Source: Candidatus Babelota bacterium (lineage in GTDB: Bacteria > Babelota > Babeliae > Babelales > GCA-2401785). From it: a DNA stretch of 64,000 nt. Positions 11,091-61,527 of the stretch are shown piece by piece. The translations under genes were made by a program, and so were the position numbers. Within the stretch, counting starts at the first letter, position 1. Each line of letters starts with the position of its first letter. Below the pieces are notes generated by a model. The model was not told the origin of the DNA, did no database searches, and saw only the letters and a program-made list of their open reading frames with translations. The DNA lies in assembly GCA_016871815.1 (NCBI GenBank), contig VHBT01000002.1:17359-81358 (forward strand), read 5' to 3'.

Positions 11091-13160
11091 ATGAAATTTA
11101 TACAATTTTTACTACTCGCCTGCTCGTGCTGTTTTTTGCTCAACTCAGCACCAAAAAGAAGAAAACCCAAACAAAAAGCTGTTGCAACAACAGCCGTCGA
11201 GCCTGAACTAACAACCGGCGGAGGTGACGAAGCTGCAGCCGGCGGTGCAGAAGCTGCTCTTGCAGCTATCGACACTACACTCGATCCACGAGTAGCTCAC
11301 ATTCTCGATAAAAAACAACAGTATCTGTACCTCAATTCAAAAGAAATTGCTGAATACGAAGCTGGAATAGATTCCTTTACCCTCAAAATCGCGCCAAAAG
11401 GATTTCGCGTTTTGAGTATCACTGGCAAAATGTCCAGAGAAAATCAGGGATTTGTTAAAAACAATCAATTAACATCTGTCCAAGAATTAAAAAAAACTCT
11501 CGGTCAAATAACCCAAAATTTGCCTGTAATTGTAGCAACAGCACGCCCACCTGCAAGAACAGAAGACCTCTCTAGAATCTTTGAACGAATTGATAATGCA
11601 TTTCGCTTGCTTGAACCAAAATTAAAGTTTACCTCTGTAACCGTTTCAAACGAGATACATTTTAAAAAACTGTTGCTCGAAATTGTCGATTTTATAGAAG
11701 CTATTGCATGGTTTGTTCATTACTCTCAAGCCACAGATCCCTTATTCATAATAAGTGTTGATAGCGTGCTAAAAGGCATTCGTGGCATGTTTGGAATAAT
11801 GGATAGAGCTGTTGCCATAAAAAACATGCGTAAAGATGTAAGCCTTGCAGCGGCAGATACGCTCAAAGAAAGTTGCTTGAGTGAACTTCTTGCTCCACTG
11901 CTAACACATGAAGCAGCCGCAAGTTCTCCGATTGATCAAATTCAACAAGCAACAAGAATCCTCAGCGAAGAATATGGTCCCATCATGAGAGATTTTTACC
12001 CAGATTCTGTGCGCAATAAAGCATTATTTGATTTTTTTTCACTTGATGACACATGCTGGCTCTCTTTAGCTGCAATAACTCAAATCGAAGACATCTCAAA
12101 AAAAACACCTTCTCAGCTCAAATGTGAAATAAAAACAAAACTAAGCTTAATTATAACGACTCTTGTATTCACAATAATTAAATACCTTCAAGAGCAAGCC
12201 GCTTCTGGTAATGACGCTAGTCATGCTTGTTTTGAATATTACACCCAAGAATCAATTCGTTTGTTCTCTTGCCACAATCCTCAAATCAAAGACGCTTTTA
12301 AGTCAAAACTCTCAAAACTAAAAGAACAATTTCTTGCAATACACAGACCTTCCCTAGATTTTGTAACTGACTCCCTTAAAGCGTCTACGGACAGCCTGCT
12401 CTTCTGCCTATGCTCAAGAACAGTTCTTCCCCCTCCAGAGATTGTGCACGATGAAGCAATAGCAAATTGTGTAGAAATTTTAAAAAGGGTAAATCGCTTT
12501 TTCAAAGAAAAAGAAGATTTGTCTCTTGAAAAACTTACACCGTTACTTCATGGAGAAATTCCTGATCGAGACTCCCGACGCAAAATGATGCCTGCGCACA
12601 CTCGAGTTGACGTAATGGTGATCCCATCGTATAGGGATGAAAGGACACTTCCCTTTTGTGAAGATATTTCACAATTCAAACTCGTGCTTCCAATGGCAAG
12701 AATGAAAGACCTTGCAAGAGTTCCAGATTGGATGATATATATCACGAGAAACTTCTCTCAAGAAGACTCCTTCTTTGATTCGATAATCAACTCCCCTCAA
12801 ATGTTTAACTATAAATATGAACAAAAAGATACAACTGCTATTCTTGCCGACTTAGAAACGCTTTGCTTGAGATACAAAGAAAACGCCGACTCTCAAGACT
12901 TACTTCTTGATGGCCGGCCAGGGCTTTCTATCACCAGACTTATGGCTATTTTTTCAAGCCTCAAGCAGCTCATCTGCACTCAAGGCCAAATACCACTACG
13001 TATAAAACTAGATATCTGGAACAGAGCCATGGACATGAATCTAGAAATCACAGATCTTCTGCAAGTTGAAGCATGGCTGAAACAAATAGACCCTTCATTT
13101 CATGGAATTGAATTTCCAGACGTGGAAACCGAAGAATACGATGAAGAGGAAGAATCATAA
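11091..13160 (+). CDS. Secreted hypothetical protein (689 aa) with an acidic C-terminus
   Basis: Long ORF with signal-like MKFIQFLLLACSCCFLLNSA, an A/G/T-rich linker, and the tail ETEEYDEEEES. No family recognised. Confidence 0.65.
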   Translation: MKFIQFLLLACSCCFLLNSAPKRRKPKQKAVATTAVEPELTTGGGDEAAAGGAEAALAAIDTTLDPRVAHILDKKQQYLYLNSKEIAEYEAGIDSFTLKIAPKGFRVLSITGKMSRENQGFVKNNQLTSVQELKKTLGQITQNLPVIVATARPPARTEDLSRIFERIDNAFRLLEPKLKFTSVTVSNEIHFKKLLLEIVDFIEAIAWFVHYSQATDPLFIISVDSVLKGIRGMFGIMDRAVAIKNMRKDVSLAAADTLKESCLSELLAPLLTHEAAASSPIDQIQQATRILSEEYGPIMRDFYPDSVRNKALFDFFSLDDTCWLSLAAITQIEDISKKTPSQLKCEIKTKLSLIITTLVFTIIKYLQEQAASGNDASHACFEYYTQESIRLFSCHNPQIKDAFKSKLSKLKEQFLAIHRPSLDFVTDSLKASTDSLLFCLCSRTVLPPPEIVHDEAIANCVEILKRVNRFFKEKEDLSLEKLTPLLHGEIPDRDSRRKMMPAHTRVDVMVIPSYRDERTLPFCEDISQFKLVLPMARMKDLARVPDWMIYITRNFSQEDSFFDSIINSPQMFNYKYEQKDTTAILADLETLCLRYKENADSQDLLLDGRPGLSITRLMAIFSSLKQLICTQGQIPLRIKLDIWNRAMDMNLEITDLLQVEAWLKQIDPSFHGIEFPDVETEEYDEEEES

Positions 13161-17381: not shown

Positions 17382-17692
17382 ATTGATTAAATAAAAAAAT
17401 CACAAAAAAGAAGTTCAGGTAAGTATCCTAATCAATGAAGATAACGCTCCGCTTAAAAGGGAGCTCTTTTTTATAAAAAAACCCCATATTTAGCGATTTT
17501 TTTATAAAGATTGGCCAATCATGGCGAAAAACTCAGAAAGCTAATCCTCTCGATAAAATCCTCAAATGAAGGGTAAAAACACAAAAAAGAGCAAAAAAAC
17601 CACATTTCAAATAAAAAAAAGCAAAATAAATATTTTCTTCTTAAGTGCTAAGCTATATCAATAGGTCAAAAAATTAATATAAAAATAACGAT

Positions 17693-18966: not shown

Positions 18967-19112
18967 TAAGAGATTTAATAAAAAATTGATTATTTTCAAC
19001 AAGCCTCTTTTTAAAAATCACCGACAACAGTAGTAACCCTACATCGGTTAGACAAAAAAGCATTTTTGAGAAACACTAAAAATTCAAATTATTAACCTAA
19101 AAAGCTCTTTTT

Positions 19113-20087
19113 ATGAAAAAAACCTTATATTTAGCTATTTTATTTATGATAATCGGCCAAGTATGGCCAGCCAAAACAGAAGATTCATGTTCTTCAGAAA
19201 ATCCCCCAACACAAAAAGGTTCTTGGTTAATCCCCTCAATTCAAAAGGTATTATTAACTCTAGGTGGACTTTACGGACTAGCTCGCTGGACTATTACCAA
19301 AAAACAGGGCGAACTGGAATTGGCGACCTGGATCGGCGGGAAATATGCTCAATCTAAAAAAAATCCCAAGACTCAAATTGTTTTTTTTAGGGGAGTTGCT
19401 GCCGATGACCTTGACCCAGACCCATATCAAGCTGAAGTTTTATTCAGTAAATTTTTGCCCGAAAATAAGTATCGCTTTTTCGCTCCAGCATTTAAATGCC
19501 GCAGACGATTTATTTCATACGCACAAAAGTGGGATATTTTTCAGTGTAAAAAAAATTTAGAAGCTATTTTTGCTCTCAAAGAAAATGATCAAGTAAAAAC
19601 GATTGTTTTTGCTCAATGCAACGGAGCTTCTACCCTTATCGCAACTCTTTTTTCTTACCCTGAACTTGCAAACAAAATTGCTGGAATAATTTTATTTGCG
19701 CCGTACGATGATATTTCAGAAGTTGGGAATGCTCAAAAAATTCCAAAACAACTCTACTCAAAAACCATCATAAAACGTTCATTCCAAGCAGTTTGTGCGC
19801 CAAATTACTCACCTAGACAACCTACGCCATGCCAACTTATTGCCACAAAAACAGTTCGCGCAGATTTACCAATCGTGCTCGTTCATGCTGCAGACGATCA
19901 TATTATTCCATCATCAGAATATGAAAAAATACGCGACTGCTTTATGGCTCATGGATACACATGTTTTCATGCAATTCAACGAAATGTAATGGGACATCAT
20001 TCCTACCAAGTCTGGCGCGATAGTGAATCTCAAGAGTTTCAAGCTCAGCTACAAGGGATTATTCAAACGCATATGCTTAATAGTTAA
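19113..20087 (+). CDS. Alpha/beta-hydrolase paralogue with Cys in the nucleophile position
   Basis: 324 aa, collinear with 17693..18559. IVFAQCNGASTLIATLFSYPELANKIAGIILFAPY aligns to IVMGHSNGASSLIVTLCKHPELANNIAHIILLAPY, and APNYSPRQPTP to APGYSPDEKNP. Acid VHAADDHII and His in GHHSY. Confidence 0.6.
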   Translation: MKKTLYLAILFMIIGQVWPAKTEDSCSSENPPTQKGSWLIPSIQKVLLTLGGLYGLARWTITKKQGELELATWIGGKYAQSKKNPKTQIVFFRGVAADDLDPDPYQAEVLFSKFLPENKYRFFAPAFKCRRRFISYAQKWDIFQCKKNLEAIFALKENDQVKTIVFAQCNGASTLIATLFSYPELANKIAGIILFAPYDDISEVGNAQKIPKQLYSKTIIKRSFQAVCAPNYSPRQPTPCQLIATKTVRADLPIVLVHAADDHIIPSSEYEKIRDCFMAHGYTCFHAIQRNVMGHHSYQVWRDSESQEFQAQLQGIIQTHMLNS

Positions 20088-20187: not shown

Positions 20188-21636
20188 TTATTCGATATCC
20201 TTCGACCTACATTCGATCCAAAATTTTCGCTTACCTGAAAGGTTCAAATTAATCTTTTGATAAGCTATCGCATACGCAAAAACAGCTACATCAAAAGGGA
20301 ATTTATATGGCTCTAGATAATAACTACTTTTGGTAAGCCGCTCTGTAATTGTGCGCTTGCCGATCCCTAAAAACCCTTTATACCTGTACACGCAAGAGCA
20401 GCTTTTCGAATGGGTTAAATAAACGATAACCCGAGCATTCTCATCAACTCCAATTTCATTTAGACAAGCCCTATTCAAAATAATTTTATCATCAAACCAT
20501 CCGTTTTTAATTATTATTTCTGATTTTTTAGATTCAAGAGAGCAGAAAATCTGTGGCGCGAAAATTCCGAAAAAAAACGCTAATGCAATTGCTAGCGAAT
20601 ACCACACTGTTTTGAAATAGTCAGACAGCCACCATTCATTAACAGTAAAAACATCTTCCTTAAGATAGAAAAAACATCCAACAGCGACTAATACAAACAG
20701 CAGCCCTGCATATAAATAGATGTCATACAAAGATCGAACAACCAAACCATCAGATGTTTTCAAAAAATCAGATCCCATGGGAATTAATGAAGACTGAAGA
20801 AAATAAAACAAACCCGTAATTGTTAAACAAAATGTTACAAAAATTATGCCAACCCTAACAAACATACTTGGACTCAACACCACAGGCACATCTCCATCAA
20901 CCGCATGATCGGGAGAACCCTCAGTGCAATACTCTTTTTGATATACACCATGGTTCTCTTCTTCTTGCTCAGCATCCCACGATGCTTGGATTTCTCCCGA
21001 CGGCAAATTATCCACATTTAAATCTATTATTCCCGATGCAATCATATTCGCAAAAACCGCCAGCTGAAGAGGTGAAAATGATGTATCAATATCACAAAAA
21101 TCTTCTTTGAATGTTTCCGTTAGAAGCTGTTTAGAATTTATTTTTTTCAAGCAAATACAATTTTCAGTATGATTTAGCTTTACCTCAACATAAGAACCTG
21201 TACTGCTAGAAAATTCAACTGCGCAAATACATCCGGCGTCCAGCAAAATTGTATTTGCCCAAGCAGATTTAAGCTCAATCCCATTCGAATAAATCAGAGC
21301 AGAAAAATTCATTCGAGCCAAAAATGGAACTAACAAAAGCATAACAACCAGCAAAATGACACTCAGAGCAAGAACGAGTGCTACAAACTGAATGTTGGTA
21401 AAATAAAATTCTTCTTTCCAAAAAAATTTTGAAATCCAAATCATAGCCATTCCAAAAAAATAAAGTTTAAAAAAACCTATAAAATATGCTGGATAAGAAT
21501 GCCTCACTCGAATTGGACCATTTTCAATCAATACAAAATCTAATCCAAAGGGAACCCAATAATTTTTTCTGATCCAGTATGTTAATCCCAGAAAAGCTAG
21601 CAAACCAATAACAATTACTAGATACAACACGCACAA
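20188..21636 (-). CDS. Polytopic membrane protein made of two tandem copies of a novel module of about 215 aa
   Basis: 482 aa. Both halves share PIRVRHSYP / LVVRSLYD, NCICLKKI / SCSCVYRY and LAVFANMIASGIIDL / FPFDVAVFAYAIAYQKINL with the 218-aa ORF at 22679..23335. Confidence 0.7.
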   Translation of the reverse strand: MCVLYLVIVIGLLAFLGLTYWIRKNYWVPFGLDFVLIENGPIRVRHSYPAYFIGFFKLYFFGMAMIWISKFFWKEEFYFTNIQFVALVLALSVILLVVMLLLVPFLARMNFSALIYSNGIELKSAWANTILLDAGCICAVEFSSSTGSYVEVKLNHTENCICLKKINSKQLLTETFKEDFCDIDTSFSPLQLAVFANMIASGIIDLNVDNLPSGEIQASWDAEQEEENHGVYQKEYCTEGSPDHAVDGDVPVVLSPSMFVRVGIIFVTFCLTITGLFYFLQSSLIPMGSDFLKTSDGLVVRSLYDIYLYAGLLFVLVAVGCFFYLKEDVFTVNEWWLSDYFKTVWYSLAIALAFFFGIFAPQIFCSLESKKSEIIIKNGWFDDKIILNRACLNEIGVDENARVIVYLTHSKSCSCVYRYKGFLGIGKRTITERLTKSSYYLEPYKFPFDVAVFAYAIAYQKINLNLSGKRKFWIECRSKDIE

Positions 21637-21644
21637 CCCCTTAT

Positions 21645-22121
21645 TTACCTAAGTTCGTATATATTTTTTATCTCTTCAATCGAACGCTGGTGTTCGTCTA
21701 TTTTTTGCTCGAAATTGGACTGGTTTTCTTCAAGATCAAAAACCTGCTGTGCTGCCTTTCCAACAAAACAACTACAAACCCGCAAGAGACACTCAAACGA
21801 TTTTAAATAATTTAAATGCTCTAGCTCTAATTTTTTGAGCTCTTTTAATCGATCAATCTCGTTTTGCAACCATTCAATCATTACCCGCGGATCAGTTGTT
21901 TTTTCTCCGGTGATTTCATTTTTTAATGATAAAAATTTTCCCATCACTTTTGGTGGACCAATTTCAAGTTCAACTCGCTCTGGAATAGGTTCGAGCGAAC
22001 TTGAATATCTTCTCAACACAGGACTTTTGCGTGGAGCAGAAAAAGAACAAAAATTAACTGCGCAAGCAAAAAATAGTAAAAGTCTAAACCACATAGAAAT
22101 ATCTTTAATATTATTTAACAA
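21645..22121 (-). CDS. Secreted coiled-coil protein (likely start at 22094, MWFRLLLFFACAVNFCSFS)
   Basis: 158-aa ORF. A signal-like segment follows the internal Met, and the C-terminal half has heptad character (IEWLQNEIDRLKELKKLELEHLNYLK). Tightly packed in the operon. Confidence 0.55.
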   Translation of the reverse strand: MLNNIKDISMWFRLLLFFACAVNFCSFSAPRKSPVLRRYSSSLEPIPERVELEIGPPKVMGKFLSLKNEITGEKTTDPRVMIEWLQNEIDRLKELKKLELEHLNYLKSFECLLRVCSCFVGKAAQQVFDLEENQSNFEQKIDEHQRSIEEIKNIYELR

Positions 22122-22689
22122 CCGTTAAATGGAGTATCTGTAATTCAATATAATTTTCAACAAATTTTTTATGTTTTTCTCGCTCTTGTTTCCATGCAAG
22201 CATAAGTTCACCGTGACTTAACCCATGTCTATCGGATTTATTTTGCAAAAACGTTATAAATTGCCACTCTTGCTTTGGCTCATTCACAGTTTTTTTCCGC
22301 CTATCCATTTCTTCTTGCCAAAACCTTGCAAATTCCTGATACGACGGTGGATTACCCGCAAGCCAACGCTCATTAAGCCAGTCGATTCCAAACGCGGTGA
22401 AGTGAAAATGGTCCCCAATAAGTTTTTTGAAAAACAATCGAGTCGCTAAATCATTTTTGTACGCACCCTTAAGCATTAAACTATGGGGCTCAAGAGAAGA
22501 AATAATTCCTTTTTTCGCACAAGAAACAATCGGGACCTTCGGCATAGCCAACTCTTTTCCCGTTTCCAAAAAATGAATTATACGTCGCGCCAAAATACCT
22601 TTGGCTCCGACTGATGAAATATTAAGACGGACACAAAGATCTTTTAATTCGGCAACATGTAAATAAAAAATGCTTTGATTAAACAGCAT
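22111..22689 (-). CDS. SAP-like DNA-binding domain protein with a DUF6434-like C-terminal region
   Basis: 192 aa. The N-terminus FYLHVAELKDLCVRLNISSVGAKGILARRIIHFLETG fits the SAP helix-extended-helix pattern. YKNDLATRLFFKKLIGDHFHFTAFGIDWLNERW resembles the domain that accompanies SAP in bacterial proteins (recollection only). Confidence 0.5.
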   Translation of the reverse strand: MLFNQSIFYLHVAELKDLCVRLNISSVGAKGILARRIIHFLETGKELAMPKVPIVSCAKKGIISSLEPHSLMLKGAYKNDLATRLFFKKLIGDHFHFTAFGIDWLNERWLAGNPPSYQEFARFWQEEMDRRKKTVNEPKQEWQFITFLQNKSDRHGLSHGELMLAWKQEREKHKKFVENYIELQILHLTVVK

Positions 22690-23335
22690 TAAAAAGACCC
22701 TTTTTTAAACCTTGCTTACTCATATCAATTACTCCTGATGCAATAGCATAAGCAAAAATCGCAGGGTCAAAAGGAAACAAGTCTCCCGACAAAAGACATG
22801 TTTTACGATACAGCCGTTGCTCATACCAATAACTAGATTTTCGACGATTGCCTCCTATATATATATTAATATTTTTTTTACATAAACAATTCTTCAAATG
22901 CACAAATGACACCCTTATACGAAGATTCTCTCGTTGAGAATTTGGAATAAGCTCCACTGACCTAAGACACTTCCTATCAAAAAGCACCTCTAGTTTGTCT
23001 CTATCACGGACTTGTATACTTTTAGAACTCCATATCAAACTCGGTCGCGCATGTGCATCAATAAATATGAGAAACGAGAATCCCAAAAAAATAATCAATC
23101 CAAGCAATACATGAATTCGTGCCAAAATAAGACTCACAAATATGTTCCCCGCCCACACAGAGTAGACACTTCGAACACGCAAGATATTATTTTTAATCGT
23201 AAAAGACTTCCCTAAAGGAACAAAGTCTAAAAAAAGATTCCACCACATAAAAAAATTAAAAGCAAAACACAAAATAAATATCGGTAAAAAAAACTCTAAA
23301 AAGCCTTTTAGGATGCTAATGTAATTTTTGACCAT
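22679..23335 (-). CDS. Membrane protein, single copy of the novel module of about 215 aa
   Basis: 218 aa. TM helices, ILRVRSVYS, HLKNCLCKKNI and FPFDPAIFAYAIASGVIDM shared with both halves of 20188..21636. Confidence 0.7.
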   Translation of the reverse strand: MVKNYISILKGFLEFFLPIFILCFAFNFFMWWNLFLDFVPLGKSFTIKNNILRVRSVYSVWAGNIFVSLILARIHVLLGLIIFLGFSFLIFIDAHARPSLIWSSKSIQVRDRDKLEVLFDRKCLRSVELIPNSQRENLRIRVSFVHLKNCLCKKNINIYIGGNRRKSSYWYEQRLYRKTCLLSGDLFPFDPAIFAYAIASGVIDMSKQGLKKGLFNAV

Positions 23336-23467
23336 TCATATTTCCAAAAAATGAATTATACGTCGCGCCAAAATACCTTTGGCTCCGACAGATGAAATGT
23401 TAAGACGGCAACAAAGATCTTTTAATTCCGCAACATGCAAATAAAAAATGCTTTCGCCAAATAACAT
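23336..23467 (-). pseudogene. Truncated duplicate (43 codons plus stop) of the 5' end of the SAP-domain gene
   Basis: MLFGESIFYLHVAELKDLCCRLNISSVGAKGILARRIIHFLEI* compared with the N-terminus of 22111..22689. 127 bp (23341-23467) matches 22563-22689 with 12 mismatches by my count. Its TGA directly abuts the ATG of the 218-aa gene. Confidence 0.7.
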
Positions 23468-23473
23468 AAAAAG

Positions 23474-24667
23474 TTACTTTCTATCGCCAAATACTTGAGT
23501 ACAATTTTTTTGCAAGCGCTTTAAAAAAAAACTTAATTGCTCTATTTCTTCCTGACGAAATCCTTCAAAAATTTTTTGATATGTACGCTCAACAATTGGC
23601 CAAATTTGAGCTATGAAAATCTCTCCGCTAGAGGTCAAAACATATAAATCATCTTGAAAAGAAACATACTTTTCCTTTATTAGCGGTTCAACAAATGACT
23701 GTAACTCAGATTCAAGCAGCGAAATATCTCTACAAATCTGCTCTTTTGCTACACCTGACTCACAGTGCATAATCATCATGCAGATAACCTGATTTCCAGA
23801 AAACGAAGTTAACTGTCGAACTTCAAAGTCAAATGCCATGCGAATAAACATGCCCGTAACATTAACCTCTCTACCAAAATTCGTAAGTATTTTTTCTTTA
23901 AGCATAGATACAACCTGTTTAAACTTTAATTCATACATAGAAATACCAGCAAAAACTGCTGCATTAAGAGACTCAACATTCAAGTTCATGGGAACTTGAA
24001 CAGCTATATCTGCAATATTCAATAATTCATCACAGACTCCAACCGATTCATTTCCGACAATCAAAGCAATTTTTTTTTCAGAAAGCCTTATCTGAGACTG
24101 AAGTAACTTTGCATGAGGAGTCGTTACAACAATTTGATAATCATTCTGCTTTAGATACTCAATTGTTTTTAAAGCGGACTCTTTTTCAATTATAGAACTT
24201 TTAAAAACAAGTCCTCGAGATGAATCAATAATTTTGCGCTGAAAGGAATCTTGCAACATGCTTGAATATATAAATTGCTTAATTCCTAGTCCCTGTGCTG
24301 TTCGAACGATTGAGCCAATATTACCCAAATCTTGAAGTCCATCCATAACAACAACAAACTCTTCTGGTTTTAATGTATTATCTGGAATATGAACAACCGC
24401 TAAATAAGGAATAACATAAGAAGTATCACTAATTTTTTTTAAAACACCTTCAGAAACGTAGTAAATACAATTTTTATTGCATTCAAACACATCTTCCATC
24501 CCATCTAGAATAAAAATATTTTCAAAAAAAAGTTTTGCTTCAAGCGCCCATTTAATCTGTTCAACATCAAACAATAAAGCCTTTCCATGGCGCCGCCGCC
24601 CAGAAACAGAATGCAAACTTCTCGCTAATTCTACTCTAGGATCTTTAATACTCGTAATTTTCAACAT
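23474..24667 (-). CDS. SpoU/TrmH-family RNA 2'-O-methyltransferase fused to a C-terminal MarR-like winged-helix domain
   Basis: 397 aa. SpoU motifs MDGLQDLGNIGSIVRTAQGLG, LIVGNESVGV and VPMNLNVESLNAAVFAGISMYE. The last ~140 aa (FSGNQVICMMIMHCESGVAKEQICRDISLLESELQSFVEPLIKEKYVSFQDDLYVLTSSGE...FRQEEIEQLSFFLKRL) follow MarR topology. Confidence 0.65.
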   Translation of the reverse strand: MLKITSIKDPRVELARSLHSVSGRRRHGKALLFDVEQIKWALEAKLFFENIFILDGMEDVFECNKNCIYYVSEGVLKKISDTSYVIPYLAVVHIPDNTLKPEEFVVVMDGLQDLGNIGSIVRTAQGLGIKQFIYSSMLQDSFQRKIIDSSRGLVFKSSIIEKESALKTIEYLKQNDYQIVVTTPHAKLLQSQIRLSEKKIALIVGNESVGVCDELLNIADIAVQVPMNLNVESLNAAVFAGISMYELKFKQVVSMLKEKILTNFGREVNVTGMFIRMAFDFEVRQLTSFSGNQVICMMIMHCESGVAKEQICRDISLLESELQSFVEPLIKEKYVSFQDDLYVLTSSGEIFIAQIWPIVERTYQKIFEGFRQEEIEQLSFFLKRLQKNCTQVFGDRK

Positions 24668-49460: not shown

Positions 49461-50819
49461 ATGGCTAAGCAAAAAACTATTTTTTTTTGCACAAACTGTG
49501 GCCAAGAATCAGCTCGCTGGATCGGATGCTGCACCCAATGCAACGAATGGAATACCTACACCGAATTTAAAGAAGCAAAAAACCCAAAAAAATCCGCTCC
49601 TTTAAACAAAGTGTCATCAACGGTCATGCATTCGCTTAATGAAATTTCAACCGAACAGTTTCCTCGATTTATAAGTGGAATTGACGAGTGGGATAGAGTC
49701 TCGGGAGGCGGCATTCTTCCAGGAGCATTTATTATTCTTACCGGCGATCCAGGTGTTGGCAAATCAACATTACTCCTTCAACTCGGACACGCACTATCGA
49801 CCAACGACAAAACAGTTTTTTATTTTTCCTCAGAAGAATCATTGCAACAAGTTAAAAACCGCGCAACAAGAATTGGAATCGCTCACACAGCGATGCAATT
49901 TTCTGACCAAACCCATCTAGAAACAATTATTGCTATCGCAAAAGAACAAAAACCCCACATCATGATCATCGATTCAATCCAAAGCTGTATTGTCGAAAGT
50001 GATGAATATTCATTTCCCGGTACCGTTGGGCAACTCAAAACCGCTGCGTTTGAACTCATGCGCCTTGCAAAAGAAAACAATATCGCAATCATCATTACCG
50101 GTCACATAACAAAAGATGGTACCATGGCTGGACCAAAAGTACTTGAGCACATGGTGGATGCGGTATTTTACTTGCAGGGTGATGACAGATTTGAAACGCG
50201 TATTTTGAGAGCCGTAAAAAATCGATTTGGCACCATCAACGAGATTGGCTTTTTCCAAATGAATGCCGACGGCATGTCGCAAGTGTCTGATATCAACGCT
50301 CTTGTTATTCAAAATGCATCAATCAGCCCTGGAGCATCACTCATCTGCTCAATGGAAGGCACTCGGCCTGTGCTTGTTGAAGTTCAAGCACTGTGTATTG
50401 AATCCAAATTTGGCACACCACAACGAGTTATCAGCGGCCTTGATCATAAACGAGTTGTGCTCGTTGCAGCGATTTTAGAAAAGTATCTCCGCATTAAACT
50501 CAGCTCACAAGATATCTTCTTTAAAGTCACTGGCGGCTTTACGGTTAAAGAGACGGGCAGCGATTTGGGAATAGCCCTGGCATTATTGTCATCCTACCTT
50601 CAAAAAGCTCTTCCTCCACACACGATGGCCCTTGGAGAAATGAGTCTAACAGGTCACATAAAACCAATTTCATCAAGCGAAAAACAATTACTCGAAGCGC
50701 ATAAGTTTGGTATCAAAAATTTAATAACTTCACACAAGACCGTAGCCGGAAAAAATAAATTTGAAACAGTCACAGGCCTCCGCAGCGTATACGACCTGGT
50801 CGCTATTTTCCCAGAATAA
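49461..50819 (+). CDS. radA: DNA repair protein RadA/Sms
   Basis: 452 aa. Zn finger FFCTNCGQESARWIGCCTQCNEWNT, Walker A GDPGVGKSTLLLQ, KNRFG motif and a Lon-like C-terminal domain. Confidence 0.95.
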   Translation: MAKQKTIFFCTNCGQESARWIGCCTQCNEWNTYTEFKEAKNPKKSAPLNKVSSTVMHSLNEISTEQFPRFISGIDEWDRVSGGGILPGAFIILTGDPGVGKSTLLLQLGHALSTNDKTVFYFSSEESLQQVKNRATRIGIAHTAMQFSDQTHLETIIAIAKEQKPHIMIIDSIQSCIVESDEYSFPGTVGQLKTAAFELMRLAKENNIAIIITGHITKDGTMAGPKVLEHMVDAVFYLQGDDRFETRILRAVKNRFGTINEIGFFQMNADGMSQVSDINALVIQNASISPGASLICSMEGTRPVLVEVQALCIESKFGTPQRVISGLDHKRVVLVAAILEKYLRIKLSSQDIFFKVTGGFTVKETGSDLGIALALLSSYLQKALPPHTMALGEMSLTGHIKPISSSEKQLLEAHKFGIKNLITSHKTVAGKNKFETVTGLRSVYDLVAIFPE

Positions 50820-50856
50820 CCAGCAGATTAATATGTATCTTTTTTAAGCCTGAAAC

Positions 50857-50888
50857 AGTAATTGTGGACTTAAAAGTCCACAATTACT
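50857..50888 (+). terminator. Strong stem-loop 38 nt downstream of radA (probable terminator)
   Basis: agtaattgtggactt (50857-50871) and aagtccacaattact (50874-50888) are perfect 15-nt reverse complements, followed by an A/T-rich tract. Confidence 0.6.
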
Positions 50889-50927
50889 CAAAATATTTTT
50901 ATTCATGAAATATTTTAGGAAGAGCTC

Positions 50928-51548
50928 ATGGGCAACAATCTGTCTCATTTATTTTTAAGCGTAATAATGTTTTTAAGCTGCGCATCATTGGAATCAATTT
51001 TTTTTGCGGGATATTTTAAAGCAAGAAGAGACTATGCTCATGCCGTACAAATTAACAAGTTTGAAGAAACGCTACACGGTAAACATCCAAACAAATGTAC
51101 TTCTTTATTTTCCGAAGAAGAACTTACAGATTGGCTTATTGGCAATCCATGGTTTATGCCTCCCGACAAAGATGCTCGCATGCCCCTATTTGGCCCTTGC
51201 ATAAAAAGATACACATTTAAAAAAAATAATTTATTTAAATTCTCGCTATCAAAACTACCTCACTACTCAGGAAAAATCGCTCGCTGTAAAACATATCATC
51301 ATGTTTTTGTAAATATTCCAATTATTGAAAAACAATGCTCGATGGATAAGCTAAAATTCTCATGGCCTTATGCGCTTTCTATGTCAATTTACCTAAAAAA
51401 TGGATATAGAAATAAATTTAGCTCCTGCAATAAGCCATCAATTATAACGTTGAAACAAGGTAAAATAACATTTCGAGAAGAACTCCCTGATGAGGTCTGG
51501 ATTAAAAAATTTTATGTTGACCCTGTAGATTGGACTCCTAAGTTCTAA
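50928..51548 (+). CDS. Hypothetical protein (206 aa) with an N-terminal hydrophobic segment
   Basis: ORF with MGNNLSHLFLSVIMFLSCASL, Cys- and Lys-rich, no family recognised. It lies between radA and a relic of the radA 3' end. Confidence 0.5.
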   Translation: MGNNLSHLFLSVIMFLSCASLESIFFAGYFKARRDYAHAVQINKFEETLHGKHPNKCTSLFSEEELTDWLIGNPWFMPPDKDARMPLFGPCIKRYTFKKNNLFKFSLSKLPHYSGKIARCKTYHHVFVNIPIIEKQCSMDKLKFSWPYALSMSIYLKNGYRNKFSSCNKPSIITLKQGKITFREELPDEVWIKKFYVDPVDWTPKF

Positions 51549-51567
51549 TTTTTATTAACATTTTTGA

Positions 51568-51657
51568 ATAAAAACCGCTTTTTGCAAAAACAAATTCGAG
51601 AGTATTCTTGGCCTTAGGAGTGTTTACGACCTTGTATCGATTTTTCCTGAAGAATAA
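51568..51657 (+). pseudogene. Relic duplicate of the last ~29 codons of radA
   Basis: Translation IKTAFCKNKFESILGLRSVYDLVSIFPEE* compared with the radA C-terminus ITSHKTVAGKNKFETVTGLRSVYDLVAIFPE*. The frame is closed upstream by TGA at 51565-51567. Confidence 0.7.
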
Positions 51658-51786
51658 TTCGCTACAACAAACAACAATACCAAAAAAGAAAACCGCCTAA
51701 TAAGTATTCTTATTGATTGTGCAGAACAATTACAAAAACATATTTCACACCCAATTAATCGGGTTTAAGAACACGCAACACCACTC

Positions 51787-52245
51787 TTGGACACCTGGCA
51801 TGCGACTGCGCTGGATGCTCAACAAAAAACAGTTGCTCTTTTTATCAATCAAGTCAGTGAATTTTGCCTAATTAGTGAAATTTCTGGAAAAATTTCACTT
51901 GAAAACGCTGTTAGCCTTTTTATCAACGCACTAAATGAACAACTTAAAGAAAATAGCGCAATCAATCAGTATCACCACACGTTTGATCATAAAATTAAAC
52001 ATGGCGTTACATTTACTAAAGGCTCAGAATCAGAAGTACACTGGATTGTATCTGCTATCGAAAAATTATTGATGGAAAATCCTGAATTAGCAAAAGATAC
52101 CGCACGACTTTCACACAAAATAAACAATTCAGAATTTCCTGAGCTTAAATTTCACACACCAACTCAAAAATTATCCCTCACCCTGGTATCACTTCCCCAC
52201 GACGAGAATAAAAAAGGCCCATCAAAAATGGGCCTACATTTTTAG
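51787..52245 (+). CDS. Hypothetical protein (152 aa, TTG start)
   Basis: ORF only, no family recognised. It ends inside a terminator-like hairpin. Confidence 0.4.
   Translation: MDTWHATALDAQQKTVALFINQVSEFCLISEISGKISLENAVSLFINALNEQLKENSAINQYHHTFDHKIKHGVTFTKGSESEVHWIVSAIEKLLMENPELAKDTARLSHKINNSEFPELKFHTPTQKLSLTLVSLPHDENKKGPSKMGLHF
52215..52243. terminator. Bidirectional Rho-independent terminator between convergent ORFs
   Basis: aggcccat (52215-52222) pairs with atgggcct (52228-52235) around a 5-nt loop. It is flanked by an A6 run upstream (a U-run on the minus strand) and by acaTTTTT downstream. Confidence 0.65.
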
Positions 52246-52473
52246 TTACTTTTTAATCAATTGACGTGCCGTTACAATAAACACGCCTCTTCTTTTACGT
52301 GCATCGACGGCAATCGGAGAATTTCCATAATAATCACATGCGGAGCATTTTCTTGACGATTTTCTTGAGTCAACACTAGAAGGTGTTGCTGTGGCAGAGC
52401 TCGCACCAGAAGAAGATCGCCCAACCTTTTTAACAAAATCAGACAATGAATCTTCTGGAATAGCAACACTCAA
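52246..52473 (-). CDS. Small hypothetical protein (75 aa, TTG start), Ser/Arg/Lys-rich
   Basis: ORF only. It is followed on its own strand by the 52215-52243 hairpin plus U-run. Confidence 0.3.
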   Translation of the reverse strand: MSVAIPEDSLSDFVKKVGRSSSGASSATATPSSVDSRKSSRKCSACDYYGNSPIAVDARKRRGVFIVTARQLIKK

Positions 52474-52524
52474 CTCCGCTAATGGCTTGCTATCAACATG
52501 AGCTGATTCTTCATGAATTTCTTT

Positions 52525-53025
52525 CTAATCGCCTTCTTGATTAGAACAAAAAAAACAATCCGAAGACGTTGCTGAGTCAAAAACAGCTAAAAGAGCTATC
52601 ATAAGGCCTTCAATTCTCTCAATTCCTTTTTCTGGATCAATAGAATTTACCCAAATTTGCGCTTTTGCGCGATCAAGAAGCTCATCCAACCGAGCCCTTG
52701 TGCCTGCATACAAATCGGCTATCAAAGAGATATCATCAATAGAAACCATGTCAAGAAGAACAGCTTTATAAAAAAATAAATTTACAAAATTTATTTGCAA
52801 GGAAGGGCGATCGCTCATCCGTAACAACGATTTTAAAAACAAATCAAAGGACCTTTTTAAAGAACTCGTAGAATCATAAATCGAAGCATCAACAGATTTT
52901 GTAAATAATTGTTGAAATTGATATTTAAGCTCACCCTCTGACAACGAAAACAGTGAATGAACGGCAAAAATAGTACACAAAAAAAAGATTTTTAAATATT
53001 TTTTCACAACAAAACCGATCAACAA
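52525..53025 (-). CDS. Secreted hypothetical protein (166 aa)
   Basis: Signal-like KIFFLCTIFAVHSLFSLS, predicted helical, no family recognised. Confidence 0.5.
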   Translation of the reverse strand: MLIGFVVKKYLKIFFLCTIFAVHSLFSLSEGELKYQFQQLFTKSVDASIYDSTSSLKRSFDLFLKSLLRMSDRPSLQINFVNLFFYKAVLLDMVSIDDISLIADLYAGTRARLDELLDRAKAQIWVNSIDPEKGIERIEGLMIALLAVFDSATSSDCFFCSNQEGD

Positions 53026-53106
53026 CAGAACTCTTTATACTTTTAAAATTATTTCACTAAAGAAAATAATCACTCAATAAAAATAAAAAGCTGCGGTTTT
53101 AACGGT

Positions 53107-53127
53107 TAGACAATCCGGGCGTTGTTA
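53107..53127 (-). repeat. 21-bp exact copy of the prfA 3' terminus (direct repeat partner of 54359-54379)
   Basis: tagacaatccgggcgttgtta occurs at 53107-53127 and at 54359-54379. On the minus strand both copies encode NNARIV plus the last two bases of the stop codon. Confidence 0.85.
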
Positions 53128-53182
53128 AAAGTTTAAAAACCTCCATAAAACATTTAAGGACGATCTAAATAAAAAAGATGTG

Positions 53183-54340
53183 CTATTTAAGATTTGCTTT
53201 AAAGAAATCGGTAATGCCTTGATTAATAGCCTGCAATGCAATCTTACCATTTACCGCCCCAATCATAGCCGCAGTAGCTTGATTTTTAAAATAGATAGGC
53301 GAGTCTTTCAACAATAAAAGATCTGTAAATCCATTATGCCCTAGCCCGCTAATGACCTCACTATTTAGCGTGCGAATTGCGATCAAAGCCTCACGACGAG
53401 CATCAGCAATAAAAGCAAGAGGGCAATTAAGTTGAGCAGAAAGCTCTTCATCGCTCGAAGGAAGATAAAATGTCTCAACAGATGTTTGCGCAAAATAAAT
53501 TTTGCTTGATTTTGAAGGGATAACATCACCCAGTGCAACACCATCAAGACTTACACATGCCCTAAATAGGTTTTTTTTAGCCGCTAACATTAATGCAACA
53601 ACTCCACCAAAAGAGTGCCCCATCACACCAACTCGATCCATATCAAAAAGCCCATGCAAAAAAGACTCTGAATCGTCTTGCATCTTTTCTATTTCACTAA
53701 CTACCGAATCTACATCCGAAATCCATAATTCCTGATCTTCGTATTTATAGTAATCAGAAAGAAAAGAACTTTGCTTATCTTTATTAAACGTTACCGTTCG
53801 ATTGCCAGAAATAACTACCTTATTGGCAAAATGAGTATGCGATATTCCAACAACAATATATCCATGACTTACTAATTCATGAGCAAACAAACTATACATT
53901 TCAGGCGCACTTGCAAGATACCCATGAAGTAAAAAAATTACTGGAAATTTTTGCCGCACAGGTTGAGCTTTTTTTTGTACTGGAATTTTAATAGATCGAA
54001 GATCAGAAACTGATTCACGCTCCACTCCCATAAAATGATTAAACGTTTGCACGGCAGCTATAGCCTCATCATAATATGATTCAAGAGGATACGCTTCATC
54101 ATGTATTGCGGGATACCAAAAACGAACCTTCAATTCTCGTGGTTCGCTTGCAAAAAAGGGATCGTGCCTATCTTTATCAATCACCTGATGAACTATCGTG
54201 CCTACCTTATAGGGCCCTGTCAAATTTAAATCCAAGGCGTTTTTTAATTCCTTTTGATCACATTCAAGTTTTAATGACATAAAATAAAATCCCAAAACCC
54301 CGCTCAAAAACAATACGGCGATTAAAAATAACTTGTTCAT
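53183..54340 (-). CDS. Secreted alpha/beta hydrolase, PAF-acetylhydrolase/lipase-like
   Basis: 385 aa with a signal anchor. FPVIFLLHGYLASAPEMYSLFAHELVSHGYIVVGISHT and GVMGHSFGG resemble the PAF-AH (PF03403-like) family. A C-terminal GLGHNGFTD could supply the catalytic His. Confidence 0.55.
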   Translation of the reverse strand: MNKLFLIAVLFLSGVLGFYFMSLKLECDQKELKNALDLNLTGPYKVGTIVHQVIDKDRHDPFFASEPRELKVRFWYPAIHDEAYPLESYYDEAIAAVQTFNHFMGVERESVSDLRSIKIPVQKKAQPVRQKFPVIFLLHGYLASAPEMYSLFAHELVSHGYIVVGISHTHFANKVVISGNRTVTFNKDKQSSFLSDYYKYEDQELWISDVDSVVSEIEKMQDDSESFLHGLFDMDRVGVMGHSFGGVVALMLAAKKNLFRACVSLDGVALGDVIPSKSSKIYFAQTSVETFYLPSSDEELSAQLNCPLAFIADARREALIAIRTLNSEVISGLGHNGFTDLLLLKDSPIYFKNQATAAMIGAVNGKIALQAINQGITDFFKANLK

Positions 54341-54357
54341 ATTTTTCTTGTAAAAAA

Positions 54358-55422
54358 CTAGACAATCCGGGCGTTGTTACGTCGCTCAATGCGTTCATTT
54401 TCGATAAGAGGATCAATCAGATCCTGCATATCACCATTCATGACCAAATCAAGTTTTTTAAGTGTCACATCGACACGATGATCTGTAATTCGGTTTTGAG
54501 GATAATTATATGTTCTAATTTTCTCGGAACGCTCACCTGTTCCGATTTGTGACTTACGATTACTGGATCGCTCAGCCTCAAGCTTCTGCTTCTCGGCTTC
54601 ATAAATTCGCGCCTGAAGCACTTTCATCGCTTTTGCTTTGTTTTTAATTTGAGATCGCTCATCCTGACATGTTACAACAACTCCCGTTGGGATATGAGTT
54701 ATGCGAACCGCTGAATCTGTGGTATTAACGTGCTGACCGCCCGCACCACTAGAACGGTAATAGTCGATACGCAAATCGCTTTGATTTATAGAAATTTCAA
54801 CTTCATCAACCTCTGGCAAAACCGCAACAGTAACTGTTGATGTATGAATTCGACCAGCCCCTTCGGTTGCTGGAACTCGTTGAACACGGTGCACTCCAGA
54901 CTCAAACTTTAAAGATCGGTACACGCCCTTGCCTTTAATATAGGCGATAAGCTCTTTGCAGCCTCCAATATCAGACGAGCTAATATCAACTACAGAAACT
55001 TCCCAGCCCAATGAATTAGCATAAGCAGTATACATTCGGAATAAATCTGCCACAAAAAGACCTGCCTCCAAGCCTCCCGTTCCTGCACGAATTTCCAAGA
55101 AAACAGAATTATCATCGTGCTCATCGGCCGGATAAAGCTTATCTTCTAGCTTTTTTTCCAATGCGACCTGCTTAGCCTTTAAAGAAATCAATTCTTCTTT
55201 GTATAAATCAGAAAGCTCATCACCCTGCGAAATAAGCTGAACACAATAGGCTTCTTCACGCGAAACCTGCTCAAGTTCATCATTAGTTTCCAAAAGGCCA
55301 TTAAGCAAAGAGCTTCTTTTCTGCAAATCGACTCTGTCTTTTGCGGGAAGAGAAGCTCCATCGTTTAATTTTTCAAGAATTTTGTTGTATTCCGCTCTAA
55401 CAGAACCCCAATCTATCATCAA
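54358..55422 (-). CDS. prfA: Peptide chain release factor 1
   Basis: 354 aa. PAT tripeptide ([17 protein letters not shown]) and GGQ motif ([23 protein letters not shown]). Confidence 0.95.
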
Positions 55423-59178: not shown

Positions 59179-61527
59179 ATGAAACTTTCACTGAATTGGA
59201 TTTTTGATCACATCAATGCAGCGCTGTCACATCAAAATGTTGAACAGATTATCAAGCGCTTTAACGAAGTATCTGCCGAAATTGATGGCGTTTGTCATAT
59301 GACTTACGACAACGATAGTTTGTATACAGCTGTTGTAAAAAACAAAACCTCTGAGCACGTAGAAGCTTTTATTGCAGAAACAAATCAAACAATCAATCTT
59401 TCTATCCGATCAGATGCACAAAACAATCAATCCAATTCTGTTGTTTTTCTTGTAAAAAAAGTAGCTGGATCTTTTGATTGGGCAACATATAAAGATATGG
59501 GACAAGAATCTGAAACACTTATTCCCGCTCTTTGGTTGGATCAAAAATATCATGACGGCTCATGGCGGAATCTTATCCCAACGCACGACACAATCATCGA
59601 AGTTGACAACAAAACAATCACTCATCGCCCTGACATGTGGGGACACCGTGGTTTTGCTCGAGAAATTACCGCTTTTATGAATTTACCATTAAAGCCCCAT
59701 AATCAAGTCACAGATTCACTTGAAAACACAGAACATAATTCTTCGATGAAAATTGCGGGTGCAATAGAATCAGAGCAATGCTCGCGATTAGTCTTGGCAT
59801 ATCTTTCATCAATCGAAAATAGAGCCTCTGATTTTTTTATTGGCATTCGGTTAATGCGCCTTGGATCAAAAATTTTTGGCGCAATCGTCGACCTCACCAA
59901 CTATGTGATGCTTGATTGGTCTCAACCAAGCCATGCATATGATGCCGCTGAAATTGCTGAAAACAAAATTATTGTTCGACATGCAAAAACCGACGAAGAA
60001 ATAACAATCTTAGATGGCTCTGTAAAAAAACTTTCTCCACAAGACGTTGTTATAGCATCGCCAGAAAAAGCCCTTTGCATTGCTGGCATCAAGGGCGGCC
60101 TAAATTCTGGAATTACAAAAAAAACAACTTCCGCTGTTTTAGAATTTGCAACTTTTGATGCAACCTCTGTCAGAAAAACAGCTCATAAATTAAATCTTCG
60201 AACAGACGCTTCTGCCCGTTTTGAAAAAACACTTTCATCTGAACAACCAATTGAAGCTCTTGCACGATTTATGTTTTTAGCAAAACAACTATCATTAAAT
60301 CCTGTAATTTCTGGTCCTATCGTAAATATCGCAAATAACCCAAATAAACCAATAACAATTACGATCGAACATCACTTTATCGAATCTCGCATGGGAATAA
60401 TCCTCTCCAAGGAACAAATCTTAGACATGCTCTCATCTTTAGAATTCGAAATCTCATGCGCAACTCAAAATCAAATAACTACCTATACAATTAAAGTTCC
60501 TCACTTTAGAGCATCCAAAGATATTCGCATCCGAGAAGATATCATCGAAGAAATTACTCGCATGTACGGATTTGATAAAATCCCGCTCTCTCTTCCCTCT
60601 CGAACAACAGCCCCAAGCGACATGGCGATAAATGCTCACGAACGAAACCTCAAGCGAATTTTGTCAAATGTTGGTGGCATGTTCGAACAAAAAAATTACA
60701 TGTACTTTGATTCATCATTCACGGAGCAACTTGGACTTGATACTTCAAAATGTTTATCTATCGTAAACCCTGTCTCTAGCAACCAATCACTTCTTGTAGA
60801 CTCTCTTATTCCAGGGTTGCTCAAAAACGTAGAAGATAACATTTTGGAATATGATGCACTTTCTTTTTTTGAAATTAACGCCACCTGGAATCTGCAACCC
60901 GCTCAAACATACAAAGAAGAACAACGTCTTTCTGGAATATTTTTCTCGCGAAGAAGCAAAGCTCATTTTTTACAGAAAAAAACCATTCTCTCGCGATTGC
61001 TTGATGAAGCCGATCTAAAAACAGCTGATTGGAAGGCTTCAAGCGAACCACTCTACGCCTGTTTTGACCCAGAACAAACAGCGTCTATTTATCACGAAAA
61101 TAAATTAATTGGATTTGTCGGATTTATTCGCAAAGAAATTATCAATAAACTTACCGGAACCCTTCCTGAAAGTTCTGCGATTATTTTTGATTTTGATTAT
61201 TCCGTACTCAAAAACAACAAAAAAACGCTCGTTAAATTTAAGCCAATCTCTCGATACCAAGCGAGCTCTGTTGACGTTTCATTTTTGGTTCCCGCAACAG
61301 TTTCTTACGAATTTATCGCAACTAAACTAAAAGCCCTTGATTCATCCATTTCGGAATTGAGCCTTATCGACTCTTTTACCAAAAAAGAATGGAATGGAGA
61401 TCGGTCGCTAACCTTTAGACTCAAAATTAGCTCGCATGACAAAACAACAGATAAGAATGATATTGATAGCATCTTGTCCAAAATCACCTCATTCGCACAG
61501 CAACACAAATTAAGTCTTAGAGAATAA
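59179..61527 (+). CDS. pheT: Phenylalanine--tRNA ligase beta subunit
   Basis: 782 aa. MKLSLNWIFDHI start, B3/B4 region (ITHRPDMWGHRGFAREI; VDLTNYVMLDWSQPSHAYD), B5 and a C-terminal FDX-ACB-like domain. Confidence 0.9.
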   Translation: MKLSLNWIFDHINAALSHQNVEQIIKRFNEVSAEIDGVCHMTYDNDSLYTAVVKNKTSEHVEAFIAETNQTINLSIRSDAQNNQSNSVVFLVKKVAGSFDWATYKDMGQESETLIPALWLDQKYHDGSWRNLIPTHDTIIEVDNKTITHRPDMWGHRGFAREITAFMNLPLKPHNQVTDSLENTEHNSSMKIAGAIESEQCSRLVLAYLSSIENRASDFFIGIRLMRLGSKIFGAIVDLTNYVMLDWSQPSHAYDAAEIAENKIIVRHAKTDEEITILDGSVKKLSPQDVVIASPEKALCIAGIKGGLNSGITKKTTSAVLEFATFDATSVRKTAHKLNLRTDASARFEKTLSSEQPIEALARFMFLAKQLSLNPVISGPIVNIANNPNKPITITIEHHFIESRMGIILSKEQILDMLSSLEFEISCATQNQITTYTIKVPHFRASKDIRIREDIIEEITRMYGFDKIPLSLPSRTTAPSDMAINAHERNLKRILSNVGGMFEQKNYMYFDSSFTEQLGLDTSKCLSIVNPVSSNQSLLVDSLIPGLLKNVEDNILEYDALSFFEINATWNLQPAQTYKEEQRLSGIFFSRRSKAHFLQKKTILSRLLDEADLKTADWKASSEPLYACFDPEQTASIYHENKLIGFVGFIRKEIINKLTGTLPESSAIIFDFDYSVLKNNKKTLVKFKPISRYQASSVDVSFLVPATVSYEFIATKLKALDSSISELSLIDSFTKKEWNGDRSLTFRLKISSHDKTTDKNDIDSILSKITSFAQQHKLSLRE

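Follow-up and report, generated by a model that had tools for sequence, protein, structure and literature searches.

How does a gene come to stand between two exact copies of the end of a housekeeping gene? The question is raised by a 64,000-nucleotide stretch of contig VHBT01000002.1 (positions 17,359 to 81,358 of the forward strand, hereafter the window), which belongs to an uncultured intracellular bacterium of the Dependentiae (Babeliales) and for which identical contigs come from the Joint Genome Institute (JGI) dataset 3300021376 and from two runs of the Sequence Read Archive. The housekeeping gene is prfA, coding for peptide chain release factor 1 (54358..55422, minus strand; PCRF and RF-1 domains, orthologues 91–77% identical). 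The terminal codons of this gene occur a second time 1.25 kb downstream, and the space between the two copies is occupied by the gene of a 385-aa alpha/beta hydrolase resembling platelet-activating factor acetylhydrolases (PAF-AH) and lipases (53183..54340, minus strand). A preliminary description of the locus had proposed here an attL/attR pair or some other insertion regenerating its target site. The comparison with syntenic relatives points to a hydrolase gained in this particular lineage, with the distal copy of the prfA end very probably left behind as the scar of that insertion. The route by which the gene arrived is a more delicate matter, and the evidence on it is weighed below.

The repeated end of prfA and the gene between the copies

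The repeated 21-mer (TAGACAATCCGGGCGTTGTTA) has exactly two matches in the window, at 53107-53127 (copy 1) and 54359-54379 (copy 2), as previously reported, and the first of them does lie 55 nt past the stop codon of the hydrolase. A scan in which up to three mismatches were allowed returned just the same two sites. Copy 2, which on the minus strand reads T AAC AAC GCC CGG ATT GTC TA, is the functional end of prfA, comprising the last base of an Arg codon, the NNARIV codons and the TA of the TAG stop. Copy 1 is non-coding, and the base that follows it is an A, giving an in-frame TAA stop where prfA has TAG. Because of this extra base it is effectively a 22-nt relic of the prfA terminus (53106..53127, minus strand) with a stop codon of its own. 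The identity of the pair breaks off abruptly at both edges. The repeat had been described as GC-rich in an AT-rich context, and the direction of the difference is right, but its size is mild (48% G+C in the 21-mer against ~38% in the window). A second, decayed copy of prfA at the distal site was also considered and ruled out, there being no similarity to prfA past the 21 nt.

The duplication is not a product of chance. Dinucleotide shuffles of the window never gave any 21-mer match (0/100), the expected number of such matches being ~1e-3 per window, and at 42 other prfA loci exact matches of the gene's 50-nt tail region to the 10 kb downstream reached 14 nt at most, with an upstream control in the same survey falling in the same range. 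The earlier judgement that a fortuitous match was very unlikely is thus borne out by shuffles and loci alike. A chance repeat, or an operator or terminator motif shared by the two sites and unrelated to any gene gain, is a reading with practically negligible probability: the short length of the repeat is all that speaks for it, while besides the figures just given the sequence has no predicted structure and codes for protein in only one of its two copies, the other being intergenic. Folds around both copies were no better than those of shuffled sequences (z -0.3, +2.2, +1.7), no attC-like site was seen and no convincing terminator was found at the repeat region. Nor can the 21-mer be called a dispersed repeat, with no further copy in the window and none in exact scans of a viral and of a metagenome contig collection, the latter being a weak negative, since the known JGI source contig is also missing there. 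In a self-BLAST of the window the pair ranked second among the direct repeats, the first being a 114-nt repeat at 22.5/23.3 kb.

Exactly one gene had been placed between the copies, and the 385-aa open reading frame (ORF) is indeed the sole plausible one. Its product matches the Pfam family PAF-AH_p_II (PF03403) with an E-value of 2e-15 and PAF-AH in the PDB with an E-value of 2e-7, the GHSFGG motif of the nucleophile elbow being aligned, and it has a hydrophobic N-terminus. Judging from these features it is likely a secreted or membrane-anchored protein of the lipase/phospholipase type and a plausible host-interaction gene. Lying only 17 nt behind prfA, it is probably co-transcribed with it. 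Both its codon usage and its G+C content are typical of the genome, with no compositional anomaly.

Direction of the change

We have compared the locus with four syntenic relatives among the Babeliales, designated L097 (P0241), L088, L091 and L094, in which prfA is 91, 83, 79 and 77% identical, respectively. The block upstream, made up of pheT, an amino-acid permease gene, two unnamed genes, rpmE and prfA itself, is retained in all four, and the genes radA-tdk-atpG beyond the interval are retained in L097, L088 and L094, the genome of L091 being rearranged there. The hydrolase is absent within 10 kb of prfA in every one of these relatives, and each has its own prfA tail in a single copy. The tails differ from the 21-mer at no fewer than four positions, and the encoded C-terminus, NARIV or NARII, is kept, indicating that the NARIV tail is the native ending of prfA in this clade. 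Moreover, in L097 and L088 prfA is directly followed by the orthologue of a gene that in the window (ORF166/ORF75, see below) sits just past the distal 21-mer. The closest homologues of the hydrolase are only 30–35% identical and are found in unrelated contexts that do not adjoin prfA; a search for a close homologue or for a donor in which the gene is linked to prfA gave nothing better than the best of these (35%).

Since the four relatives are devoid of the gene and carry one copy of the tail each, and since the nearest homologues are so distant and so differently placed, the hydrolase is a gain specific to the lineage of the window, postdating its split from L097. The distal 21-mer therefore marks one edge of that event, and we regard its identification as an insertion scar as highly probable. 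The gene that served as the target has not suffered, prfA remaining intact after the insertion. The segment 53128-54358 had been put forward as a later addition, to be checked by examining the DNA downstream of prfA in related genomes, and this examination supports it: insertion is favoured, and the opposite pattern, i.e., relatives without the hydrolase that nevertheless have both copies of the repeat, was not seen in the four genomes. No variant of the same species without the hydrolase was recovered, as all the contigs with an exact prfA carry the gene in a version that is 100% identical.

The reverse direction has also to be considered. The hydrolase could be ancestral behind prfA and have been deleted independently in the relatives, perhaps by way of the repeats, which as direct repeats are able to mediate a precise deletion; the native-like codon usage and the distant homologues (30–35% identical) on other metagenome contigs would agree with an old resident. 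However, at least three to four independent and precise losses would be required, a neutral 21-mer would not stay identical while synonymous sites are near saturation, and the nearest homologues are not linked to prfA. We consider this history very improbable. With gain as the direction of change, the acquisition of a likely secreted lipase or phospholipase is here dated and delimited to the base in an obligate intracellular symbiont of protists.

Routes of insertion

The flanks of the segment are what bears most directly on its origin. The prfA TAG stop is directly followed by TTTTTTACAAG, within a 17-nt spacer (TTTTTTACAAGAAAAAT; 54341..54357, minus strand) that reaches to the ATG of the hydrolase and resembles the post-stop DNA of L097. 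Over this region 16 of 20 bases match in register, which is the best value among 331 post-stop sequences drawn from the window itself and from 12 loci of Dependentiae (p ~0.0002 by shuffling), and the long BLAST alignment to L097 continues unbroken from 63935 to 54341 and ends at the hydrolase ATG. By sequence, then, the 17 nt look orthologous to the post-stop DNA of the nearest relative. At the other end, a 55-nt spacer (53128..53182, minus strand) lies between the TAG stop of the hydrolase and copy 1, which it abuts with GGTTTTTAAACTT; no homology was found for it, and a comparison with the intergenic DNA of the relatives gave no similarity. Past the TAA of copy 1 the DNA continues with CCGTTAAAACC. 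The first 38 nt of it match no relative, L097 included, and from about +39 there is a weak match to the DNA downstream of prfA in L088.

Two further observations concern the composition of the 17-nt spacer. Motifs of the T-run/ACA/A-run kind are about five-fold over-represented in the window (for T-run/A-run motifs like the spacer, which are of low complexity, 9 were observed against 1.9 expected), and the 16-mer that follows the prfA stop (TTTTTTACAAGAAAAA, 54342-54357) recurs exactly at 59444-59459 inside pheT, on the minus strand.

These flanks argue against a simple crossover at the 21-mer, or a duplication of it as target: in either case the DNA behind the prfA stop should be foreign and that flanking the distal copy native, but the former looks native and the latter matches no relative over its first 38 nt. 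In addition, no recombinase, integrase, transposase or phage gene was detected with Pfam, PHROGs and NCBIfam in the neighbors and the 27 ORFs searched in the window, and there are neither terminal inverted repeats at the ends of 53128-54358 nor arm-type repeats. Thus the initial interpretation as attL/attR finds no support, for want of a recombinase, of inverted repeats and of a structured site, and with a 17-nt flank that looks native.

The route that we tentatively prefer, while rating it somewhat short of an even chance, is a displacement of the native prfA tail by recombination that was homologous on one side and illegitimate on the other, of the type known as homology-facilitated illegitimate recombination (HFIR). 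The incoming DNA would have derived from a closely related strain and have contained the 3' part of prfA with its TAG, the 17 nt of post-stop sequence, the hydrolase and the 55 nt beyond it. One side of this DNA would have paired with the resident prfA, and an illegitimate joint would have attached its other end 21 nt upstream of the stop codon of the resident gene. The tail of that gene (the 21 nt, the TAA and its own downstream DNA) would in this way have been shifted 1.25 kb downstream, where it would now be a dead relic. The two 21-mers could later mediate the precise loss of the hydrolase.

Such a displacement accounts for the native-looking 17 nt and for the sharp upstream edge of the relic, and it suits both ends of the interval, the radA relics described below being likewise gene ends that were displaced after a functional life. 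It would also explain why the identity ends inside the stop codon (TAG versus TAA), as this is where coding conservation yields to divergent intergenic DNA. The absence of a recombinase fits, and a donor of similar composition fits the host-like codon usage of the hydrolase; the varying lengths of the relics (22 nt at prfA; 87 and 230 nt at radA, described below) fit joints formed at random. At the locus itself the resident end of the gene survives past the insert in the form of the 22-nt relic and its TAA, and collinearity with L097 extends through prfA to +17, with no mosaic break in prfA and, again, with a spacer motif of low complexity. A displacement model was proposed for the orphan modules found behind the genes of type VI secretion systems (T6SS), Rhs proteins and contact-dependent inhibition (CDI) systems (PMC5361080). 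The arrays of orphan T6SS immunity genes and orphan Rhs/CDI C-termini described there resemble the prfA locus in the use of a conserved gene end as homologous anchor, in the position of the new DNA right behind it, in the old end pushed downstream as a relic, in the lack of a recombinase and in the variable lengths of the relics (PMC5361080). They differ in that the anchors here are housekeeping genes (prfA, radA) and not polymorphic toxin loci, that the cargo is a single hydrolase, and that the prfA relic is just 22 nt long and identical to the new end.

Several points weigh against this displacement. A perfect 21/21 match with sharp edges over the stop codon of a conserved gene has the classic look of an attachment (att) core. 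The donor tail would have to be identical over 21 nt and yet be followed by different post-stop DNA, which calls for a very close donor and for intergenic DNA that was polymorphic. Nor does the model explain how the donor came by a hydrolase behind its own prfA, a step that is pushed back into a genome that has not been seen. The argument from the 17 nt rests on a low-complexity T-run/A-run of an over-represented kind, with an identical 16-mer at 59444-59459. Neither a donor nor an allele of this species with an empty site has been recorded, nor has any variant contig, and the identity profile of prfA, in which there is no mosaic drop at the 3' end, gives no mosaic signal. Finally, natural transformation and the recombination machinery are, to our knowledge, uncharacterized in the Dependentiae.

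The att-like appearance leads to a decayed element made by an integrase, i.e., a minimal island or a remnant similar to the cis-mobilizable elements (CIMEs), with a 21-bp att core over the prfA terminus and a recombinase that acted in trans or was lost, leaving the cargo behind. This rival has to be taken seriously, though we regard it as rather unlikely. An exact, sharply bounded 21-bp repeat over the last codons and stop of a housekeeping gene is a hallmark of such insertions; here the flanking direct repeats are exact, the proximal one forms the 3' end of prfA, and the relatives show an empty site with single tails, each of them at least 4 positions off the 21-mer. CIMEs are flanked by att sites, have no recombination genes and go down to 1.2 kb in size, being found at the 3' ends of rpmG, rpsI, fda and rplL in streptococci (PMC7563491). 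The likeness extends to the direct repeats with one over a housekeeping 3' end, and to a cargo of about 1.2 kb without genes for recombination, mobilization, conjugation or other transfer. The segment is unlike them in lacking a known cognate integrative and conjugative or integrative and mobilizable element (ICE/IME), or a functional element in tandem, and in the native-looking DNA at its proximal repeat. An element sharing the site was not found on the viral and metagenome contigs, from which the 21-mer is missing (the second of these negatives being the weak one), or at the 42 other prfA loci, where there was neither a duplicated prfA tail nor an adjacent integrase signal. Only the hydrolase lies between the repeats, the ORFs tested in the 64-kb window have no recombinase domain, and the missing terminal inverted and arm-type repeats also speak against a decayed element, as does the resemblance of the DNA by the proximal repeat to what follows prfA natively in a relative. 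In Escherichia coli, the insertion of e14 at icd leaves a pseudo-3' end of 163 bp (PMC6379469). There, as with phage 21, the gene stays functional through a substitute 3' end brought in by the incoming DNA, and the native end persists as a pseudo-fragment beyond the insertion. These insertions are thereby also the closest parallel to the radA relics with their mostly synonymous differences; the prophages concerned, however, exceed 10 kb, encode an integrase and have a defined core, and no phage gene or integrase was found here (PMC6379469).

Other classes of element fit less well. Neither terminal inverted repeats nor a transposase as expected of a transposon or insertion sequence was found, and the 21-bp repeat is too long for one. 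The target-site duplications of transposons are of fixed length, typically 2–15 bp. The boundary also lacks the imperfect palindrome of an attC site that would mark an integron cassette.

A break just past prfA could also have captured a foreign fragment of 1.2 kb in a single illegitimate step, the second 21-mer arising by staggered fill-in or as templated filler copied from some 20 nt away. Copies made in this manner would necessarily be identical, so that the 21/21 match is explained, no donor allele of prfA is needed, and the lack of mobility genes agrees with it; if the 17 nt are native, the prfA tail would have lain ~18 nt from the break, near enough to serve as a template. Against this, a staggered duplication should have placed the 17 nt behind both copies, and they are missing behind copy 1, and a filler that ends precisely within a stop codon would be a coincidence. 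We know of no templated fillers of 21–22 nt documented in bacteria, which counts against this route as well, and we judge it quite unlikely. Whatever the route, what is seen is the ordinary footprint of a gene gain, and nothing indicates an active mobile element: the prfA insertion works like known insertions that regenerate a gene end and reveals no new kind of mobile element.

The radA relics, the variable interval and other repeats

The interval that begins behind prfA is closed by a convergent core gene, radA (49461..50819, plus strand), and here too the end of the gene is found twice. A stretch of 87 nt (51571..51657, plus strand) encodes 27 codons and a stop, KTAFCKNKFESILGLRSVYDLVSIFPEE, ending in GLRSVYDLVSIFPEE, that are 74% identical to radA residues 426-452. 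A longer relic is present at the equivalent place in L097, where it abuts the end of the ORF166/75 orthologue: 230 nt (L097 11958-12187) corresponding to radA residues 377-452, with one frameshift. Both relics end in VSIFPEE, whereas all the functional tails end in VAIFPE or VALFPE. The dN/dS (nonsynonymous to synonymous rate ratio) of the L097 relic against functional radA tails is 0.05–0.09, at a proportion of synonymous differences (pS) of 0.57–0.67, as in true orthologues, and between the two relics the proportion of nonsynonymous differences (pN) is 0.13 and pS 0.85. Because the divergence is almost purely synonymous, the relics diverged as functional ends of radA before they were displaced. 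They were probably displaced independently in the two lineages; what lies between radA and the relic is ORF206 in the window, and ORF89 with an Rce1-like gene in L097. As in prfA, the identity profile of radA has no mosaic signal. The parallel drawn earlier between prfA and radA thus holds insofar as the relic is real, but it is a displaced tail that was once functional and of a type common to L097.

The neighboring block, 50820-51567, had been taken for a later addition as well, which it is not. It consists of a 3'-end remnant of ORF147 (50826-50850), a perfect hairpin (50857-50888) and ORF206 (the whole at 50826..51548, plus strand), and ORF206 and the hairpin are orthologous in the same interval of L088. 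There (12700-12780 region) the 32-nt perfect hairpin is kept upstream of the ORF206 orthologue, and a 147-aa gene separates the block from radA. The 25 nt before the hairpin in the window are what remains of the 3' end of this L088 gene, ORF147, which was deleted in the lineage of the window and internally shortened to ORF89 in L097.

The remainder of the interval, 51658-53106, had been considered ancestral, and this is true of one of its genes. ORF166 and ORF75 (52246..53025, minus strand) are one ancestral gene, the orthologue of ORF238 in L097 and ORF231 in L088, with an in-frame stop at 52525-52527. Both parts are in the same frame and jointly match the intact 238-aa gene of L097; the locus may be a pseudogene or give a two-part product. 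It is not true of the DUF6933-like gene (152 aa; 51787..52245, plus strand), absent from the four relatives and, after the hydrolase, the second lineage-specific gene of the interval, for which no flanking repeats were found. With the radA relic on one side and the end of ORF75 on the other, this gene finishes in a bidirectional terminator-like hairpin (52215-52235).

As judged from these alignments, the region from prfA to radA is a hotspot of gene flux, its content being different in every genome examined, with displaced gene ends at its borders. Hotspots of integration between core genes have reportedly been the subject of statistical work by Oliveira, Touchon and Rocha in 2017, in cultivated species. 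The present interval is like them in lying between conserved genes and varying in every relative examined, mostly without recognizable mobile-element genes, and unlike them in that base-level scars are visible, and in an uncultured intracellular lineage. The radA relics, with divergence at synonymous sites only, are unusually clear evidence that DNA of related lineages recombines into these genomes, which bears on how reduced, host-restricted bacteria acquire genes. Elsewhere in the group, the region downstream of prfA carries variable genes for secreted proteins: in L001 (10587-12366), whose prfA is 62% identical, the gene is followed by three tandem paralogues of ~180 aa with signal peptides and conserved ribosome-binding/5' regions.

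One could go further and see in the relics at prfA (22 nt) and radA (87 nt, and 230 nt in L097), together with a 132-nt duplicated 5' end at ORF218, traces of a recurrent process by which single accessory, effector-like genes are slotted against the ends of core genes in the Dependentiae, regenerating these ends without a recombinase. If this were true, it would amount to cassette exchange through recombination between lineages inside a shared protist host. We hold it to be improbable. In a crude survey the local density of direct repeats was 0.09 per kb in Dependentiae loci against 0.07 in other loci, i.e., without a clade-specific excess.

The duplication at ORF218 is the strongest direct repeat of the window. 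It extends over 132 nt (114 nt at 95% identity), at 22563-22694 and 23341-23472, and spans positions -5 to +127 of ORF192, which codes for a SAP-domain protein (22111..22689, minus strand); the copies bracket ORF218 (22679..23335), a relative of both halves of ORF482 (20188..21636). In the upstream copy the ATG is kept together with 42 codons (93% aa identity), and it ends in HFLEI and a stop, where TGAATG runs into ORF218. Instead of an insertion, a segmental duplication in tandem with a later deletion could account for this arrangement. Beside it lies a TrmH/SpoU-like methyltransferase gene (23474-24667) whose best homologue, 56% identical, is on a non-syntenic contig, so that no syntenic relatives of the duplication were found through this gene. 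The metagenome-assembled genome with that homologue includes another contig (L047) labelled Hyphomicrobiales, and the flanking core genes of the window have relatives at 80–90%. Going by these similarities, the methyltransferase gene may be another acquired one.

A weaker repeat of 42 nt (83% identity; 17462-17503 and 19103-19144) corresponds to the start of another alpha/beta-hydrolase gene, ORF324 (MKKTLYLAI). The second version of this start is degenerate (YKKTPYLAI, with the ATG lost) and is located ~190 nt upstream of a tandem paralogue, ORF288.

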